From Chiloscyllium plagiosum (lineage: Eukaryota), in contig NC_057745.1 of NCBI RefSeq assembly GCF_004010195.1, positions 6,328,861 to 6,392,860 of the forward strand: a stretch of 64,000 bases of DNA. The letters are read 5' to 3'. The position numbers were made by a program, and so were the translations under genes. Below the pieces are notes generated by a model. That model had not been told where the DNA came from, did no database searches, and was given only the letters and a program-made list of their open reading frames with translations. Of the stretch, positions 6,921-62,499 are shown one piece after another (the first letter of the stretch is position 1; the number at the start of each line of letters is the position of its first letter).

Positions 6921-7099
6921 AACCTAGTCTAAAATACTTTATGATTTCAGTAATCTTGAAATGTCATAATATAGGAAGCAAGGTCCCATAAACTGCAACG
7001 TAATAACAACCAAATAATTATTTTTGTTGACATTAATATTGGTCGGGCCTCACCTTCAGTGCTCTTCTTTGAAATAGTGCTGTGTCCATCATGGGAAGG

Positions 7100-7260
7100 T
7101 TAAAAATCACACAATCACACAAATAAAGCTGTTATAGTCCAACAGCTTTATTTGGAAATACAAGCTTTCAGAGCGTTGCTCCTTCCAAATAAACCTGTTT
7201 GACTCTAACCTGATGCTGTGTGATTTTTAACTTTGTTCACTTCAGTACCTCCACATCAGG
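7100..7260. mobile_element. Family B palindromic mini-element with deleted centre
   Basis: Same GTTAAAAATCACAC...GTGTGATTTTTAAC arms. TSD CCATCATG(G/A)GAAGG at 7086-7099 and 7262-7275. Confidence 0.75.
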
Positions 7261-7634
7261 GCCATCATGAGAAGGCCATTGACTTAGCATCTCATCCATG
7301 TGGCAGCATCTCTGATACTGCAGCACACTCTCACTACTTCACTAGAGTGATAGCCTGGCGTTTTGTGCTGAAATCATAGACTGGTGCATTTGAAGACTCA
7401 ACTTTGTAACTTGGAGGTAAGAGTGTTGGCTCAGTTGGCTGGCTTGTGACACACTTGTATACCAACAATGTGGGGTCAATTCCTGCACCAGCTTAAGGCC
7501 ACTGTGAAGTCTCTCTTGTTTGTAATGTGGTGATGCTCAGGTTGAACTATTGCTAGTTGTCTCTGCCTAATGAGAGAATGGGTTTGTGGTTACTTCACTA
7601 CATTCACACAGAAGATGCTCTGCCAACTACCATA

Positions 7635-15957: not shown

Positions 15958-17225
15958 ATCCTCCCACTTCCTCCAGACCAAAGGGGTAGCCATGGGCACA
16001 CGTATGGGCCCCAGCTATGCCTGTCTCTTTGTTGGCTACGTAGAGCAGTTGATCTTCCGTAATTACACCGGCACCACTCCCCACCTCTTCCTCCGCTACA
16101 TTGATGACTGCATTGGCGCCACCTCGTGCTCCCGCGAGGAGGTTGAGCAATTCATCAACTTCACCAACACATTCCACCCTGACCTTAAATTTACCTGGAC
16201 CATCTCTGACACCTCCCTCCCCTTCCTGGACCTCTCCATCTCCATCAGTGACGACCGACTTGACACTGACATCTTCTACAAACCCACCGACTCCCACAGC
16301 TACCTGGATGACACCTCTTCCCACCCTATCTCTTGCAAAAATGCCATCCCATATCCCCAATTCCTCCGCCTCCGCCGTATCTGCTCCCAGGAAGACCAGT
16401 TCCANNNNNNNNNNNNNNNNNNNNNNNNNNNNNNNNNNNNNNNNNNNNNNNNNNNNNNNNNNNNNNNNNNNNNNNNNNNNNNNNNNNNNNNNNNNNNNNN
16501 NNNNNNNNNNNNNNNNNNNNNNNNNNNNNNNNNNNNNNNNNNNNNNNNNNNNNNNNGCCCTAACGGAGCCTTCCACATCCATCAAAGTTTTACTTGCACA
16601 TCCACTAATATCATTTATTGTATCCGTTGCTCCCGATGCGGTCTCCTCTACATTGGGGAGGCTGGGCGCCTCCTAGCAGAGCGCTTTAGGGAACATCTCC
16701 GAGTCCCCCGCACCAATCAACCAAATCGCCCCGTGGCTCAACATTTCAACTCCCCCTCCCACTCTACGGAGGACATGGAGGTGCTGGGCCTCCTTCACCG
16801 CCGCTCCCTCACCACCAGATGCCTGGAGGAAGAACGCCTCATCTTCCGCCTCGGAACACTTCAACCCCAGGGCATCAATGTGGATTTTAACAGTTTCCTC
16901 ATTTCCCCTTCCCCCACCTCATCCTCGCTTCTAACCTCCAGCAACTCGATCCCTGACCTGTCCGGACTTGTCCGATCTGCCCAGCTCCTTTTCCACCTAT
17001 CCACTCCACCCTCTCCTCCCTGACCTATCACCTTCATCTCCTTCCCCACTGACCTATTGTACTCTATGCCACTCTCTCCCCACCCCAACCCTCCTCTAGC
17101 TTATCTCTCCACGCTTCAGGCTCTCTGCCTTTATTCCTGATGAAGGGCTTTTGCCCGGAACGTCGATTTTGCCTGTCTTCGGATGCTGCCTGAATTGCTG
17201 TGCTCTTCCAGCACCACTGATCCAA
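15958..17225 (+). mobile_element. Penelope-like retroelement (5'-truncated; RT + GIY-YIG + pLTR), contains an N gap
   Basis: RT motifs GVAMGTRMGPSYA, LRYIDD, LPFLD, FYKPT. GIY-YIG endonuclease NIIYCIRCSRCGLLYIGEAGR..ERFREH...HFN...EE..I..LGT..P.GIN. The terminal repeat carries a hammerhead-like motif at 17133-17168. Confidence 0.92.
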
Positions 17226-25018: not shown

Positions 25019-25180
25019 CTGAATGAAATTGGTGGAAACCTAATTAGCAGAAAGAACAGGCACTTAAACAGCACAGGTCATGTTATCTTCAAAACCAGAA
25101 TCACTGAGTGTTAAGGCATAAAGGGAGGTCATTCAACTCATTGTATTTGCATTGGCTCTCTAAATGAACATCATTACTAA

Positions 25181-25419
25181 GTTTAGATCAGAGTGGTGCT
25201 GGAAATACACAGCAGGTCAGGCCGCATCCGAGGGGCAGGAAAATCGATGTTTCGGGCAAAAACCCTTCTTCAGGAAGGGCTGATGATGGGCTGATGAAGG
25301 GCTTTTGCTCTAAATGTCAATTTTCCTGCGCCTCGGATGCTGCCTGACTTGCTGTGCTTTTTCAGCACCACTCTGATCTAAACTCTGGTTTCCAGCATCT
25401 GCAGTCTTCACTTTTGCCT
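25181..25419. mobile_element. Family A palindromic pLTR mini-element in an ISG20 intron, 11-bp TSD
   Basis: Inverted arms TTTAGATCAGAGTGGTGCTG...CAGCACCACTCTGATCTAAA. TSD ATCATTACTAA at 25170-25180 and 25420-25430. Confidence 0.8.
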
Positions 25420-25439
25420 ATCATTACTAAATGCCAACT

Positions 25440-28412: not shown

Positions 28413-29595
28413 AGTTGAGAAGTGTGGTGCTAGAAAGGCACAGAGGTCAGGCAGCATCCGAGCAGCAGGAGAACTGATGTTTTGGGCATAAGCCCTTCCT
28501 CAAGAATGTGGGGGAGGGAGGGGGAAAGGGACTGAGAGATAAATAGGAGGGTGGGAATGGGGCTAGGGGAAGTAGCTGGGAAGGCGATAGATAGATGCAG
28601 GTAAGGGATGATGGTGGTAGGTTGGAGGGATGGGTGGAACGGATAGGTGGGAAAGAAGATGGACAGATTGGACAGTTTCAAGTGGGTGGTGCCGAGTTGG
28701 AAGGTTGGATCTGGGATGAAGTGGGGGGAGGGGAGATGAGGAAACTGTTGAAATCAATGTTGATGCTGTGTGGCTGGAGGGTCCCAAGATGGAAGATGAG
28801 GCATTCTTTCTCCAGGTGTCAGGTGGCCTGGATTTGGAGGTGGAAGATGCCCAGGACTTGAAGGTCCTCAGTGGAGTGGGAGGAGTAGTTAAAGTGGTCA
28901 GCCAGAGGACAGTGGGGCGGTTTGGTGTTGTGTCCCAGAGATGCTCCCTGAAATGTTTCGCGAGCTGGCATCCTGTCTCCCCAATGTAGAGGGGATCACA
29001 TTGAGAGCAACGCACACAGTAGATAAGGTGTTTGGAAGTGCAGGAAAATCTCTGCTAGATGTGGAAGGATTCTTTGGGTTCTTGGATGGACATGAGGGGG
29101 AAGGTGTGAGTGCAGGTTTTACACCTCTTGCACTGGCAAGTGAAGGTGAGTGGAGGGTGGATTGGTGGAGGGCCGTGGCCCTAACGAGGGAGTGTCGGAG
29201 GGTATAGTCTCTGTGGAGGTGGGCAGGGAAATATATCCACTGATAGGGGTGGGGAGGGAAATATATCTCTGGTGTAAATAGCCAAAATGGTGGAGGACAA
29301 TGCGCTGAATCCAGAGATTAGTGGGATGGAAAGTGAGGACCCGGGGGTTCTATCCTTGTTGCAGTTGGAGAGGTGGGGTTCAAGGGTGGGGGTGCAGGAA
29401 GTGGAGGAGATGTGCTGGAGGGCATCATCGACCACATGGGTAGGGAAATATGAGGCCCTCTGGGGTGTCCTGGAGTGAAATTGGGAGCAGAAACAGTGGA
29501 AATGGAGGAATTGGGAGTAAGGGATAACGCTTTTAAAGGAGAGGGGTGGGAGGAGTTGTAGTCCAGGTAGCTGTGGGAGTCAGTGGGTTTGAAGT
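28413..29595 (-). mobile_element. Degenerate Penelope-like element in an ISG20 intron
   Basis: FKPTDSHSYLDY and RCSQCDPLYIGETG..LAKHFREH in shifted frames. Same terminal repeat as the other copies. Confidence 0.88.
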
Positions 29596-40421: not shown

Positions 40422-42969
40422 GTCCAACAGCCACATGACAGATTCTTCCAAAACAAACCAAATGTTTCAGCTTTCCAATCACGGGGTGAACAAGTTGCAA
40501 GTAGTGAACCACAAACATTTGGACTTAAGTCAGAAATTCTCTTGTCACAGAGTGATCAAGTTGTAATGAATTGCTATGAGGAATAACAAATTAATCATAT
40601 GAAACAAAACCCTGTTAAAGGGAATAATGGACAGTGCCTGCTCCCTTCTGGATGAGCCAAGGGCCTTCTTTATCATTAATGTTCAATTATTCATGAAAGG
40701 CAACTGTGAACACTTCCAATTGAGTTTACGTCCCAGCTCGGAAGTCACCAGCTCAATCAAGTATAGGATGCTGGAGTCCTGCAATCTCACGCAAGTGCCG
40801 CCTTCATAAATGTGGGAAGTTATCACTGAAGTATTCAACAGTGGAAAACTTCACCACTGTTTTTTTTGGGGCGGGGCAGGTCAGGGCAGGGTCAACATGG
40901 TGAATAGTCAAATAAGCACCAAAAGGGAATGATAACACTGGTTTGTTGATTCCAATGCACTTCCTAATCTAGTATTAGCATGTCAGAATTTGGTGCAATG
41001 CTGCACAGAGATTACCAATGAAACCAACAGAACACACCAAAAAAAAGCTTGCACCATGATGCAGTAAGCTGCAAAAAACACATGAGAATTTGTGTAGCTA
41101 TCAGAGCAACCAATAAGGCATGCAAACCACCGTAGAGGAGTGCTAGAAATTCTTAAAAATCAAACCACACAACTACAGCCAGGCATGGTATTAGCTCCAT
41201 CCTTCTGGATAATAAGCTGATATTAATTGTTTGGAGTAAATTCTAAACTGGTTTTGTAAGTCTTCAACCTAAAGAAACAACCTAAAAAATAAAGAGCAGA
41301 CTACACTACAATTAAGTTGAATGTTTAAAAAAAAATAAATTTCAATAGTGGATTTCATAACTCAGCAGGTCCCAAAATGCTTCACAACCAATGATGCACT
41401 TTTAAAATGCTGAAATGGAGGAAGTGTGCCAACTAGTTTCCGAAAGTAATCTAATCTAATCTAATACCAGCAGCAATGTGATAATGACCGGATCATTTGT
41501 TTGTAGATGATGGTTATGGACTACATATATAGTATTAGCCAGGGCACCAAAGGAATGTAGCATCATAGAACCGTGAAATCGCTGGGACAGGACTTTGCCC
41601 ACATTCACGTGACAGAAAGCTAACAGTGCTACCTGATGCATCATAGTCATCCCAAAGGAAGCTCTGCATTATCACATCTCTCAGCAATACTTTAAAACTC
41701 TTTACATTCAGGTAGTTATTTTGATAAACAATGGCGGCGTAGCGGCAAGCACTTTGAGCATAGGAAGAAGCTATGTGACAAAATGCCAGAAATGTGTTTC
41801 ATCTCTCCCCTATATTCCCCCACTGCTCCAAGTATCTTTTCTTCCCCACCACAAGATTTAATCAAGGTAGTGGATGAAACCCTACCCACCCCTCACCTAT
41901 TGTTCTTCAAATACTGCAATGGGATATTTAACATTCATCTGAGGAAATCAGGCCTCAGCTGAAGAGCTGCCTCTGAGCGCACGTGACTTTCTCAATAAGG
42001 TGTGTCACAATAAATGGGATAGCACAAGAAACAAAAGTGAGTCTGTGTAGGCCTTCATACTTTTCCATTTCTACGCCCCACAACCCCCCTCCACCCCCCA
42101 CCCAAGCAAGAGTCTTCACACACAACATTTGACCCCAAAAACTAGGAATGTTTACACAGCAGGAACTCAAGGCTGCAATGTTTCACACCAAAGTTTTCAG
42201 ACCACAAGTTTTTAAGTAGAATACTTCTGTAGATTCTTAGCGTTATTATTTGTGTTCGTTTTCACATATTTTGAAACCCTTTGCAGCCACAGATATGAGA
42301 CAGCAAAACTAGAACGTGGAATACATATGCCTGTGAACCTGTTGACAGTTGAGGGGAAATTAAATTCAAGGGAAAAGTTCAAAAGAACAAAATGGAGAAA
42401 CTGGGATTATAGAACTCCAGTGATGAGCTAATAACGAGCCAAGCGGTTTCTAGTTGACTGAAGTCCATCATTAATCGACAAAACAGTGGCATTAAAGTTC
42501 AATTACAAAAAAAGTACCAGGCAAATCCTATCTCCACTCCCTCCCAAAACTAGCAGATCTTCACCCATTGTGTGTTAATTTACCATTTACTGAAGTGACT
42601 GGTCCTGTACACTTACTGCTTTCTGCATCATGCTTTGCTGGTCTGAATTATACTGGTAAGACAGCCTCGAAGTAGACATTTTGTATAGAACTCCTCTCAT
42701 ATGAGATCATCAATGGGGAATGATACCCACAAACCACTGCCCCACTGATGTCACGGGGGAGGGGCAAACATTCTGCTCCATTTAACCTGCAATTCCCTTC
42801 AAAACAGACAGAGTGGAGAATAATGCCCTGGTGAAGGAGGAGTTTAGAAGACATACATTAAAAGTGGTAAATAAGGTATCATTCTGGGGAAATAAACGAG
42901 GCTTAAACTTATATAAAGTTAAAAATCACACAACACCAGGTTATAGTCCAACAGGTTTAATTGGAAGCA

Positions 42970-43004
42970 CACTAGCTTTCAGAGCGACGCTCCTTCATCA
43001 GGTG
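42970..43004 (-). ncRNA. Minimal type I hammerhead ribozyme motif (mirror copy, sense to AEN)
   Basis: Exact reverse complement of 43023-43057. Confidence 0.7.
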
Positions 43005-43022
43005 ATAGACCTGATGACCTAC

Positions 43023-43057
43023 CACCTGATGAAGGAGCGTCGCTCTGAAAGCTAGTG
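43023..43057 (+). ncRNA. Minimal type I hammerhead ribozyme motif
   Basis: CAC-CUGAUGA-A-GGAGC-GUC-GCUCU-GAAA-GCUA^-GUG: intact CUGANGA/GAAA core, stem II, 3-bp stem I, palindromic AGCU in place of stem III, and an NUH (CUA) site. Activity untested. Confidence 0.7.
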
Positions 43058-43738
43058 TGCTTCCAATTAAACCTGTTGGACTATAACCTGGTGTTGTGTG
43101 ATTTTTAACTTTGTACACACCAGTTCAACACCGGCATCTCTAAATTATAAACTTATATATAAATTCAAACAACAAGACAAGTGTAAAATAATTAGCAGCA
43201 TTGGCCTGATTGGATGGGGTAAAGTGAGGCTACAAAATGCAGGACTCCTCAATTGAGCCCCGATTATTGGCCTCAGGAATTATTTCAGGACAACATTCAG
43301 CATCCTGTTATCTTAGAACAATTTTATAGTCCCCTGCCATTTACATCTGAATGTTTATATAGGTCGCAGGTATGGAAGAACAAGACACAATGCAACATCC
43401 ATGCTCCTTTGTGTTTAGACACCTCAGGTGGTGAACCACACCATTTTGCATTGTATTGAGCCACACATTACAAAAAGATCTTATAAAGAACTCCAGACAT
43501 AGGCTGAATCAGTGGATCTCCATTTGTGACCATTAGCAACTGCATTTGATCAACTGCATTGGTAAAGATCACCAGGGTGGGGGAGAGCTAACCATGTGTG
43601 GCATTGGCTAGTAGCTGCAAAGACCTGAGAATAATGAAACCAAGGGATGGCACCCATGACCTCAAGTGTTTGGACTGCTGCAAGAGTCTTCATCTTTACT
43701 GGTGATTGCGAAAGCTGAAGAATGTATGTATGCTCAGA

Positions 43739-45686: not shown

Positions 45687-46304
45687 CTAAATTGAAGCAA
45701 AAATTTAACATGCTAATTAACTTTTGGAATTATTAACCCTACCTGCATTCCACCCCTAATCTGCATCATCCTAATTTGGATCTCATGACCCAGGACCAGA
45801 AGTAGGCCACTCAACCCAATTAGTCTGTTCCAATGAAATTATGGCAGATCTGATAATCCTCAACTCTGCTTTCCTGCCTTTTCCCCCATAACACTTGATT
45901 CACTACCCTTGGAAGAAATTCCTCCTGATTGGTCCTAAATGGATGGGCCCTTACTCAGTGATTATACACTCTGGTCCTGTACTCTCTCATATGGGGGAAA
46001 CAACCTCTCCACCTCTACCCCGTCAGGTCCCCTAAGTGTTTTGGGCACAAAACAGCTATTCCAGCATTGTCACTGGGTGAAAAAGCCTGGAATTCACTAT
46101 CTAATAACACTATAGGAGTCCTTTCATTGTAGAAATAACAGCAGATCAATGTGGAGGTTGATCTTCCCAAGAGAAGCAAGAGATGGAGAATATTTTGAGT
46201 GACATCGATGAGAATGAATTTACTTTTAACTTGTACCCATGCAGATATGTCTGTGCGACACTAACTTTCAACCACAATCTTCAGACCTGGGCAAACCTCG
46301 TGTT

Positions 46305-46629
46305 AGGAGAAAGTGAGGACTGCAGATGCTGGAGATCAGAGCTGAAAATGTGTTGCTGGAAAAGCGCAGCAGGTCAGGCAGCATCCAAGGAGCAGGAGAA
46401 TCGATATTTCAGGCATGAGCCCTTCTTCAGAAACGTCGAGCCCTTCTTCAGGCTCATGCCCGAAACGTCGATTCTCCTGCTCCTTGGATGCTGCCTGACC
46501 TGCTGCGCTTTTCCAGCAACACATTTCCAGCTCTGATCTCCAGTATCTGCAGTCCTTACTTTCTCCTAGAAGATTTTAACTTCCTGCGAATCCTCTTGCA
46601 AGGATGCCTTCCTTGAAGAAGCTCTCTTC
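46305..46629. mobile_element. Family A palindromic pLTR mini-element in an AEN intron, 13-bp TSD
   Basis: Near-perfect inverted arms of about 115 bp spanning 46305-46567, plus a 62-nt tail. TSD CAAACCTCGTGTT at 46292-46304 and 46630-46642. Confidence 0.85.
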
Positions 46630-59452: not shown

Positions 59453-61092
59453 GGACCATCTCTGGCACCTCCCTCCCCTTCCTGGACCTCTCCATCTCCA
59501 TCAATGACGACCGACTTGACATTGACATTTTTTACAAACCCACCGACTCCCACAGCTACCTGGATTACACCTCTTCCCACCTTATCTCCTGCAAAAATGC
59601 TATCCCGTATTCCCAATTCCTCCGCCTCCGCCATATCTGCTCCCAGGAGGACCAGTTCCACCACAGAACACACCAGCTGGCCTCCTTCTTTAAAGACCGC
59701 AATTTCTCTTCCCATGTGGTTGAAGATGCCCTCCAACAGATCTCATCCACATCCCGCACTTTCGCCTTCAAACCCCACCCCTCCAACCGTAACAAGGACA
59801 GAACCCCCATGGTCCTCAACTTCCACTCCACCAACCTTCGCATAAACCGCATCATCTGCCGACATTTCCGCCACCTCCAAACGGACCCCATCACCAGGAT
59901 CACATTTCCCTCTCCATCCCTTTCCACTTTCTGCAAAGACCGTTCCCTCCATGACTACCTGGTCAGGTCCACGACCCCCAACAACCCACCATCCCTTCCT
60001 GGCACCTTCCCCTGCCACCGCAGGAATTGCAAAACCTGCGCCCACACCTCCTCCCTCACCTCCATCCAAAAGGAGTCTTCCAAATCCATCAAAGTTTCAC
60101 TTGCACATCCAACAATGTCATTTATTGTATCCATTGCTCCCGATACGGTCTCCTCTACATTGGGGAGACTGGATGCCTTCTCGCAGAGCGCTTTAGGGAA
60201 CATCTCCGGGACACCCGCAACAATCAACCCCACCACCTCATGGCCCAGCATTTTAACTCCCCCTTCCACTCTGCCGAGGACATGCAGGTCCTGGGCTTCC
60301 TCCACTGCCACTCCCTCACCACCCTGGAGGAAGAACGCCTCATCTTCCACCTAGGAACACTTCAACCCCAGGGCATCAATGTGGACTTCACCAGTTTCCT
60401 CATTTCCCCTCCCCCCACCTTACCCCAGTTCCAACCTTCCAGCTCAGCACCATCCTCATGACCTGTCCTNNNNNNNNNNNNNNNNNNNNNNNNNNNNNNN
60501 NNNNNNNNNNNNNNNNNNNNNNNNNNNNNNNNNNNNNNNNNNNNNNNNNNNNNNNNNNNNNNNNNNNNNNNNNNNNNNNNNNNNNNNNNNNNNNNNNNNN
60601 NNNNNNNNNNNNNNNNNNNNNNNNNNNNNNNNNNNNNNNNNNNNNNNNNNNNNNNNNNNNNNNNNNNNNNNNNNNNNNNNNNNNNNNNNNNNNNNNNNNN
60701 NNNNNNNNNNNNNNNNNNNNNNNNNNNNNNNNNNNNNNNNNNNNNNNNNNNNNNNNNNNNNNNNNNNNNNNNNNNNNNNNNNCCATCCTCATGACCTGTC
60801 CTACCTGCCTATCTTCCTTCCCACCTATCCACTCCACCCTCCTCTCTGACCTATTACCTTCATCCCCACCCCCATCCACCTATTGTACTCTTTGCAACCT
60901 TCTCCCCAGCCCCACCCCTCTCCTATATATTTCTCCAGCCCTGAGGCTCCCTCCCTTCATTCCTGATGAAGGGCATTTGCCCGAAATGTCAATTTTCCTG
61001 CTCCTCAGAAGCTGCCTGACCTGCTGTGCTTTTCCAGCGCCACTCTAATCTATACTCTGATTTCCAGCATCTGCAGTCTTCCCTTTTGCCTA
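59453..61092 (+). mobile_element. Penelope-like element (RT C-terminal part, Cys-rich linker, GIY-YIG, pLTR), frameshifted, contains an N gap
   Basis: LPFLD..FYKPTDSHSYLDY, then TFPCHRRNCKTCAH, a frameshift near 60070, and FTCTSNNVIYCIHCSRYGLLYIGETG. The Cys-rich RT-EN linker suggests the Neptune group (inference). Confidence 0.92.
60959..60994 (+). ncRNA. Minimal hammerhead motif in a Penelope pLTR (family A)
   Basis: AUUC-CUGAUGA-A-GGGC-AUUU-GCCC-GAAA-UGUC^-AAUU. The core is intact; stem I and stem III are weakened relative to the consensus GAAACGUC^GA seen in other copies. Confidence 0.55.
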
Positions 61093-62063
61093 ATCCCTTT
61101 TGCACCAGCATGTCAGCCTAAACATTTGTGCTCAAGTCTCTGGAACACATCTTCAAGCAAACAGTCTTCTGACTCAGAGGTAAAAGTGATTGGTACCCCT
61201 GAACCCACAGCTGACAGCAAAAGTCTTTTATCTAAACTGATGTAAAGTATTTCAGACATTGGAAATCTGAATTGAAAATGTCAAAAATACTCAGTGGGTT
61301 AGGCAGTAAGATGGAGAGAGAAATAGGGCTAATGTTTCACATCAGTGATGAAAACTCACAAACCTGAAGTGTTAACCATTTCTCTTTGATTATGGGATTT
61401 CTCAACACACTTGCCATTTATGGCCAATCCTAAATTGCCCATGAGAATGTGTTCATGAACTGTCTTAGTGAACCATCTTAGTGAACCATCGCAGTCTATA
61501 TGGTAAAGATGCTCCTGCAAAGCAATGAGTTAGGGAATTCCAGAATATATACCCAATAGTCACAAACAGGAAATATATCACATTTTTCCAAACAAACCAT
61601 AATCCCAACAGGAACACAGAAAAGAAAAAAGTCGGCGATGGGGAACAATTTGAGCATGGCTGATCCTTCATTCACTTACCATATTCCTGCTTTCTCCCCA
61701 TTTTCCTTGATGCCTTTAAAATCTAAATATCTATCTCTTGTGCACTAAATGGAACATGTTTAAAATGAGAAACCCAGACTGACGTTTCAGTGCAGTATTG
61801 AGGGGGTGCTGCACTGTGTCGGCCTCAGCTCCTCGTACACATGAATGTAAGACACCCCATGTCACTGTTTTGGGAAAAAAACAGTGTGTTCTCCTTGGTG
61901 TCTCACCAATATTTATTCCTCAATCAAAAATGTTTATGTGGCTGTTGACATATTGCGGTTTGTATGAGTTTACTGTGTGCAAATTGGTTGCTGCAATTTC
62001 TGCATGATGTCAGTCTTTGAAAATAAGGCCATTTTAAGGAGCAACAAGAACAGCTCCAAAGTT

Positions 62064-62267
62064 AAAGGTCACACAACACCAAGTTATAGTCCAACAAGTT
62101 TATTTGAAATCACAAGCTTTCAGAGCATAGCCCCTTTTTCAAGTTACCTGATTAAGGGGCTACACTGAAAAGCTTGTGATTTCACATAAACCTGTGAGTC
62201 TATAACCTGGTGTTGTGGGACCTCTAACTTTGTCCACTCCAGTCCAACACCGACACCTCCACATCAT
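62064..62267. mobile_element. Family B palindromic mini-element, diverged
   Basis: Inverted arms, a decayed hammerhead (CTGATTAAGGGGC...GAAAAGCTTGTG) and the same tail. TSD AG(C/T)TCCAAAGTT at 62052-62063 and 62268-62279. Confidence 0.75.
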
Positions 62268-62499
62268 AGTTCCAAAGTTGATTGAGAGCAGATGATGCTC
62301 AATCGACTTTTTATTGAAGCGTTGAACTCTCCCCTTCCAACTTCATTTTGATTTAGCTTCCTCCCTCTCTCCCCTTTGATCCCCTAAACAGGCACTGCAT
62401 GTAAATTAATCAATTGGAAAACATGAATGATTCACTGGTGGTAGGTTAACACATAGGAAAATACACAAGTGATGGGAAAGAAAAAGTTGAGTTGTACAT

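Follow-up and report, generated by a model that had tools for sequence, protein, structure and literature searches.

The palindrome at positions 42904-43159 of the window, by which we mean the whole 64-kb stretch of DNA analysed, consists of two head-to-head copies of one short sequence. The inverted repeat (42915-43004 and 43023-43112) is perfect over 90 bp and encloses an 18-nt spacer (43005-43022) with a CTGATGA at 43011, while a 35-nt tail (43113-43147) follows the right-hand copy and the 12-bp TSD TAAACTTATATA starts at 42904 and again at 43148. Each of these elements had been described in an earlier note on this DNA, and each was recovered at the same place. Numbering from the C of hammerhead stem I as +1 (43023), the left TSD (42904-42915, plus strand) shares its final base with an inverted arm that has no tail (42915-43008, minus strand), comprises leader positions -4 to +90 and ends at an inner site (+85-95) used throughout the family. 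The direct arm (43019-43112, plus strand) likewise runs from -4 to +90 and continues into the plus-strand tail, the last base of which is the A of the parent ORF's ATG and marks the outer end site; the right TSD (43148-43159, plus strand) follows. The inner and outer end sites would correspond to the first and second RT starts, respectively. Each arm continues for 4 nt into the spacer as templated leader (CTAT versus CTAC), the sole difference between arms that are identical over 90 bp being at -1 (T/C), which one transition can explain. The remainder of the spacer is a junction insert (43009-43018, plus strand), of which 9 nt repeat arm positions 2-10 and are followed by a single C; comparable inserts are carried by other family junctions, and it is likely a templated insertion from the joining of two cDNA ends. 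An ATTAAA poly(A) signal is present in both the inverted arm (42956-42961, minus strand) and the direct arm (43066-43071, plus strand, then a GU-rich stretch), and neither a TATA box nor an ORF was found in the palindrome.

A descriptor of the minimal type I hammerhead matched the window exactly twice, at 43026 on the plus strand and 43001 on the minus strand, and not once in 60 Markov-shuffled windows, bearing out the proposal of one hammerhead motif per strand, with a predicted plus-strand cut after 43054. The motifs span 43023-43057 (plus strand, predicted cut after 43054) and 42970-43004 (minus strand, predicted cut after 42973), and the same descriptor gave 238 matches in the fetched family loci. 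The core (CUGANGA, GAAA and UH), stem II, a palindromic stem III and stem I are all present. The word "intact" used for these hammerheads nevertheless has to be qualified, as position 11.1 is U in both arms (G10.1-U11.1) and C in the most frequent motif of the family (94 versus 24 matches). A G-U pair at 10.1-11.1 would be expected to lower hammerhead activity. The G10.1-C11.1 pair is listed as highly conserved in PMC4209133, and the metazoan PLE hammerheads described there share with these arms the CUGAUGA core, the unpaired A before stem II, GAAA, a palindromic AGCU stem III and a short stem I. Opposite-strand hammerhead pairs 100-700 bp apart are also described in that source, whereas the present motifs lie about 20 nt apart, are mutually antisense and carry G10.1-U11.1. 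An Rfam scan gave no hammerhead family at E<=1 and only generic miRNA-hairpin matches below the gathering score; the 45-nt motif folded alone has a z-score of about 0 against shuffles, as expected of a minimal hammerhead. The CTGATGA of the spacer, considered as a third hammerhead, does not pass the descriptor and belongs to the copy of arm positions 2-10.

The arm and tail together form the leader of an abundant Penelope-like element (PLE) of the RT/GIY-YIG type, immediately ahead of its ATG. This agrees with the Penelope pLTR origin, with inverted pLTR, short tail and TSD, that the earlier note had put forward, and provides the coding element ending in this pLTR for which it had recommended a search; the element is abundant elsewhere in the genome, and the window itself, as the note had stated, contains no coding parent and only distant PLE fragments. 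Reading upstream from the arm in family loci, one passes a 3' UTR and a CA-rich stretch before reaching a GIY-YIG-like region. A same-strand arm was found downstream in 25 of 30 endonuclease loci, and the tail is joined directly to the ATG in 25 of 30 ORF-start loci. The parent RT matches RVT_1 above the curated cutoff (E 5.2e-10, L143), and the parent ORF contains DKG, C-X4-CxxC and VVYLIRC..C..YIGET motifs, with cysteines in the GIY-YIG core (ADKGG and VVYLIRCRQGC...YIGET in translations of L140/L144) and a CX2-5CxxC linker between RT and EN that reads CHGGRCKTC in L140 and L006. DKG, the CX2-5CxxC linker and the core cysteines are features given for Neptune/Nematis PLEs in PMC8557442, and on its sequence motifs the parent is classified as an endonuclease-bearing (EN+) PLE with a Neptune/Nematis-type linker. 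The GIY-YIG domain was recognised by motif only, a Pfam search of the endonuclease piece returning no GIY-YIG match, and a PDB sequence search returned one weak RT match (E 0.46). All copies in 10 fetched regions are broken, with no intact ORF among them; two apparent open frames in L136 and L137, 1,037 and 929 aa long, proved to be N-gap artefacts.

The genome comprises 3.56 Gb. The tail has 9,179 exact matches, and palindromes number 1,471 as exact core-to-core matches and at least 3,246 by a looser pattern. A sample was formed from the first 100 of the exact tail matches, all of them on contig C1, and two with N at the junction were dropped to leave 98. An adjacent inverted arm accompanies 64 of these 98 tail copies, 49 of the 98 are short palindromes, and in 22 of the 98 the tail arm extends more than 30 nt upstream. 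Arm lengths are graded from under 100 nt up to ORF-bearing copies, and the family is one graded series of truncated insertions. Their 3' ends are concentrated at two sites: 55 of 64 inverted arms terminate at +85-95 and 92 of 100 tails at +123-130, with the ATG at +125, while ORF-linked arms end at 86-95 (17/25) or at 118-125 (8/25), the tail being borne by either the ORF-linked or the inverted arm. A TSD of at least 8 bp was found in 44 of 56 copies, with a mode of 12-13 bp and a range of 8-16 bp. Spacers are diverse (45 distinct in 51 palindromes; 57 distinct in 71 loci), no two of 12 nt or more being identical among the 71 loci, and the junction of the 42904-43159 copy recurs in only one of 275 fetched loci, namely itself. 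L049 and L050 (G000:C1, ~474 kb apart) have near-identical 15-nt junctions in unrelated flanks with tails on opposite sides, which may reflect a way of joining that recurs. Identical or almost identical long junctions are also shared by pairs of neighbouring loci (G000:C10:42478637 and 43550871; C21:2257373 and 2480874), which are probably local duplications.

The 5' edge of the leader is similarly sharp. Tail arms start between -10 and +10 in 39 of 98 cases and between -30 and -11 in one of 98; for inverted arms the corresponding numbers are 39 and 2 of 64. In 57 of 59 motif matches a TATAAA sits 30-32 nt upstream of A(-5). In a pool of 218 arms drawn from selected sets, and with bases explained by the partner arm left out, a G comes next in 21 of 28 arms that stop at -5 and in 32 of 90 that stop elsewhere (Fisher p 4e-4); many of the 218 stop at -1 to -4 or -6, and templated inserts derived from the inverted arm, which is rich in G, can imitate a G at -6. 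Other RTs have been described as copying the cap into an additional G (PMC4038843), and the extra G at arm 5' ends is likely a copied cap. We regard a capped transcription start at -5 as probable. No pile-up of read beginnings or ends marking RNA 5' ends or cleavage appeared in run X21, a poly(A) single-cell data set of which about 2% was read. Insertions starting at the ribozyme cut show no excess (one of 98 tail arms and one of 64 inverted arms), and this rarity indicates that the RNA templates were mostly uncut. The promoter of the Drosophila Penelope pLTR is TATA-less and internal (PMC2377424), so the arrangement of TATA box and leader seen here is not universal.

The leader also carries a poly(A) signal, ATTAAA or AATAAA at +44-49 of the arm (284 and 19 matches), and this pLTR signal is used in RNA. 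A-tailed reads of run X21 end at +61 (248 reads) and +64 (306 reads; L151:1425/1428), and such reads were placed on both window arms (221, 184 and 39 reads at 42941/42944 and 43086); X21 is one sample, its reads match the family and are not assignable to the 42904-43159 copy, and the flanks of that copy are nearly without depth. Transcripts ending at +61 or +64 would contain neither RT start site, and this may be the reason that the 5' leader usually serves as template and that tiny products dominate. With its TATA box, predicted start, hammerhead, poly(A) site and ATG, the leader behaves like a compact LTR. Since the palindrome puts the signal on both strands, it could truncate host transcripts in either gene orientation. 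In addition, 53 and 90 X21 reads join one unique flank to the leader near -5 (L151:1365; window 43019), which suggests a host transcript entering a solo copy elsewhere and perhaps using the poly(A) site of that copy.

The two arms of an insertion frequently represent different variants of the family. At loop base 18, arm pairs from 1,004 loci genome-wide are T/T in 777 cases, T/purine in 133 and purine/purine in 94, while the T/C transition, taken as a control, was found in 7 loci. Since mutation after insertion should produce the transition more readily, the bulk of the 133 T/purine pairs are real chimeras. The T/purine discordance amounts to 49% of that expected from random pairing, presumably a floor, as the subfamilies would have been active in different periods. 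Among the fetched pairs, sites 18 and -1 disagree in 15-50%, against a background of about 3%, and in indel-discordant pairs G18 lies on the short-type arm in 8 of 9. The 2-bp indel itself is discordant in 327 of 3,246 palindromes genome-wide (10%), with no direction relative to the tail (16 versus 18); as proof of two templates it is weakened by a slippage control, loss of a TG unit occurring in 4 of 75 pairs versus 8 of 66 at the diagnostic indel, so that part of it is slippage. Because this control is not small, we rely on the substitution sites instead. Variants common to both arms number 25 and private ones 307, and 8 of 123 arm pairs are identical over positions 1-84. Roughly half of the discordance expected at random is absent, and together with the 25 shared variants this indicates that same-source RNAs, fold-back or later arm-to-arm conversion also contribute. 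An RNA has only one 5' end, so that two arms which both stop there yet differ would point to two molecules.

Two fixed 3' end sites, a 5' pile-up and discordant arms together suggest that both target strands are likely primed on separate uncut RNAs, and it seems likely that two-RNA priming lies behind a large share of insertion events. The element's enzyme would nick both target strands about 12 bp apart, a protein dimer having been predicted for the anole homologue (PMC11167929). Synthesis would be primed by one nick at the ATG site and by the other some 35 nt further upstream, with a separate uncut RNA as template in each case. Both cDNAs would extend to the RNA 5' end, a capped start predicted to lie 5 nt above stem I of the hammerhead. 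Head-to-head joining of the cDNA 3' ends, accompanied by trimming or small templated insertions, would then give a product that is dead on arrival, having neither TATA box nor ORF and with its antisense arm made first in both directions. The palindrome is quite probably a minimal EN+ PLE insertion of this kind, two head-to-head copies of the leader that likely came from separate RNAs. We lean slightly towards the broader view that PLE integration is the work of a two-RNA machine, in which a dimeric RT-endonuclease would hold two capped, uncut RNAs, one per nicked strand, start at two internal sites and fuse the cDNAs head to head, with palindromes as the genome-wide readout. If so, palindromes would show where transcription starts (-5, the cap appearing as G), where RT begins at each of its two sites, and how RNAs from different source loci are mixed.

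The earlier note had instead seen in the palindrome a non-autonomous unit, retrozyme-like or MITE-like, that may move on its own; such a unit would be copied whole. A narrow size class with thousands of copies would suit such a unit, as would the recurrence of short spacers (one 9-nt spacer in 5 of 71 loci, for example) and the near-identical junctions of L049 and L050. The recurrent short spacers are, however, overlaps of the leader's first bases, spacers of 12 nt or more are not shared among the 71 loci, and the window copy's own junction was met nowhere else in the 275 fetched loci. The arms moreover differ by subfamily variants, TSD length varies, a promoter is absent and the hammerheads are sequestered in a hairpin. 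The note had named unique junctions as the mark of independent truncated insertions, and that is largely what was found; with the graded arm lengths and the abundant coding parent, the mobile mini-element reading is largely refuted and we consider it very improbable. The 42904-43159 copy is almost certainly a short PLE insertion.

Two further explanations accept a PLE insertion and dispense with separate RNAs. One RNA could serve both halves if the inverted arm arose from the first by fold-back or self-priming, and self-priming on an antisense template has been proposed in PMC3846280. The agreement of 871 of the 1,004 arm pairs at site 18, in the T-versus-purine comparison, fits this well, as do the 25 shared variants, the 8 of 123 pairs identical over positions 1-84 and the perfect 90-bp palindrome of the window copy; copying cannot, however, produce a T/purine class of 133 pairs when the transition, the likelier change, accounts for 7, and neither the linked variants that switch together (8/9) nor the presence of the tail on either arm is accounted for. 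We therefore hold fold-back to be an unlikely origin of the palindromes. Discordance could alternatively stem from two pLTRs on one tandem RNA, given that tandem pLTR-ORF copies exist (L151, L152 and L156), or from ectopic gene conversion after insertion, for which there are thousands of potential genomic donors. An internal pLTR on a tandem RNA would have no 5' end at -5, yet both arms of short palindromes stop there, and in L024, L040 and L066 both arms not only stop at -5 but also carry the G; the lack of direction in the indel discordance relative to the tail likewise counts against this explanation, which too appears improbable. The copies offer a countable test between two-RNA priming and fold-back, the present count speaking against pure fold-back.

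An inversion within one TSD also arises in L1 twin priming, where both target strands prime cDNA. Twin priming inverts non-overlapping parts of one RNA, whereas here one 90-nt stretch is copied into both arms, frequently from variants that differ. MITEs have inverted repeats at both termini, a uniform interior copied as a unit and a fixed TSD length, and the present family differs in its one-sided tail, its 57 spacers in 71 loci and its TSD of 8-16 bp. Non-LTR retrozymes (bioRxiv 10.64898/2026.07.22.740005) are, like the palindrome, non-coding, derived from PLE pLTRs and hammerhead-bearing, but are described as head-to-tail tandems with at least two same-strand hammerheads; the copies here are head-to-head with one motif per strand, which places them outside that group.

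Among PLEs, by contrast, an inverted pLTR with tail and TSD is standard, already published anatomy, and the palindrome at 42904-43159 is real but, as a minimal insertion of an element of known kind, ordinary. Pen2a_Av (PMC3846280) and the PLE scheme of PMC8557442 show the same head-to-head pLTRs with a one-sided tail of 30-40 bp (35 nt here), the same 8-16-bp TSD, a tail reaching into the ORF start and a hammerhead in the pLTR. The present family departs from them in that both halves are reduced to a leader of about 130 nt without ORF in about half of the tail-bearing sample, and its arms are measurably chimeric, which the self-priming idea as set out in PMC3846280 does not predict. The Poseidon element of Anolis carolinensis studied in vitro (PAc, PMC11167929) offers the closest parallel to the proposed scheme, with two internal RT starts that bound the tail, cutting and extension of both target strands, uncut RNA as the main template and a predicted dimer. 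PAc belongs to the Poseidon clade and its RT starts lie more than 100 nt inside the ORF, whereas the parent here has a Neptune/Nematis-type linker and one of its sites is placed at the ATG, the other about 35 nt ahead of it. The main text of PMC11167929 does not address one versus two RNAs by experiment, and passages of both PMC8557442 and PMC11167929 describe the origin of PLE inverted ends as unresolved. We found no proposal of two RNA templates for PLE inversions in the literature searched, a body that did not extend to the 2005-2006 PLE reviews.

The 42904-43159 copy is probably inert both as an element and as a ribozyme, since it has no promoter, a G·U pair closes stem II and its hammerheads are buried. 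A read-through transcript of it is predicted to fold into a single hairpin (-177.6 kcal/mol, z -26.6); because the antisense arm is transcribed first in either direction the hammerhead would be sequestered, and the two motifs, lying on opposite strands, cannot form an active dimer with each other. The suggestion that it is young is made doubtful by a contig of run X20, whose flanks are about 2.6% divergent (13 in 503 and 12 in 466) and which reaches 27 bases beyond the TSD into the left arm; this overlap is shorter than the 31-letter threshold of the method and is suggestive only. X15 spans the right junction, though perhaps not independently of the assembly.

The same layout had been reported at two further places in the window, and this holds for the arms, tail and TSD. 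The insertion at 7086-7275 is older and more truncated, with a 14-bp TSD (one mismatch) and no intact hammerhead, and that at 62052-62279 is a diverged arm-arm-tail relative with a 12-bp TSD (one mismatch) and decayed hammerhead cores; the two are 72-91% identical to the 42904-43159 arm, and the hammerhead descriptor matched neither copy. More distant PLE families are represented by decayed RT/endonuclease fragments at 15968-16858, 28917-29534 and 59470-60359, with 25-41% amino-acid identity to the parent element. A second Penelope-like family with another hammerhead stem II forms arm-arm-tail palindromes at 25170-25432, with a 13-bp TSD (one mismatch), and at 46304-46600, where the scan found no TSD, indicating that the layout is generic.
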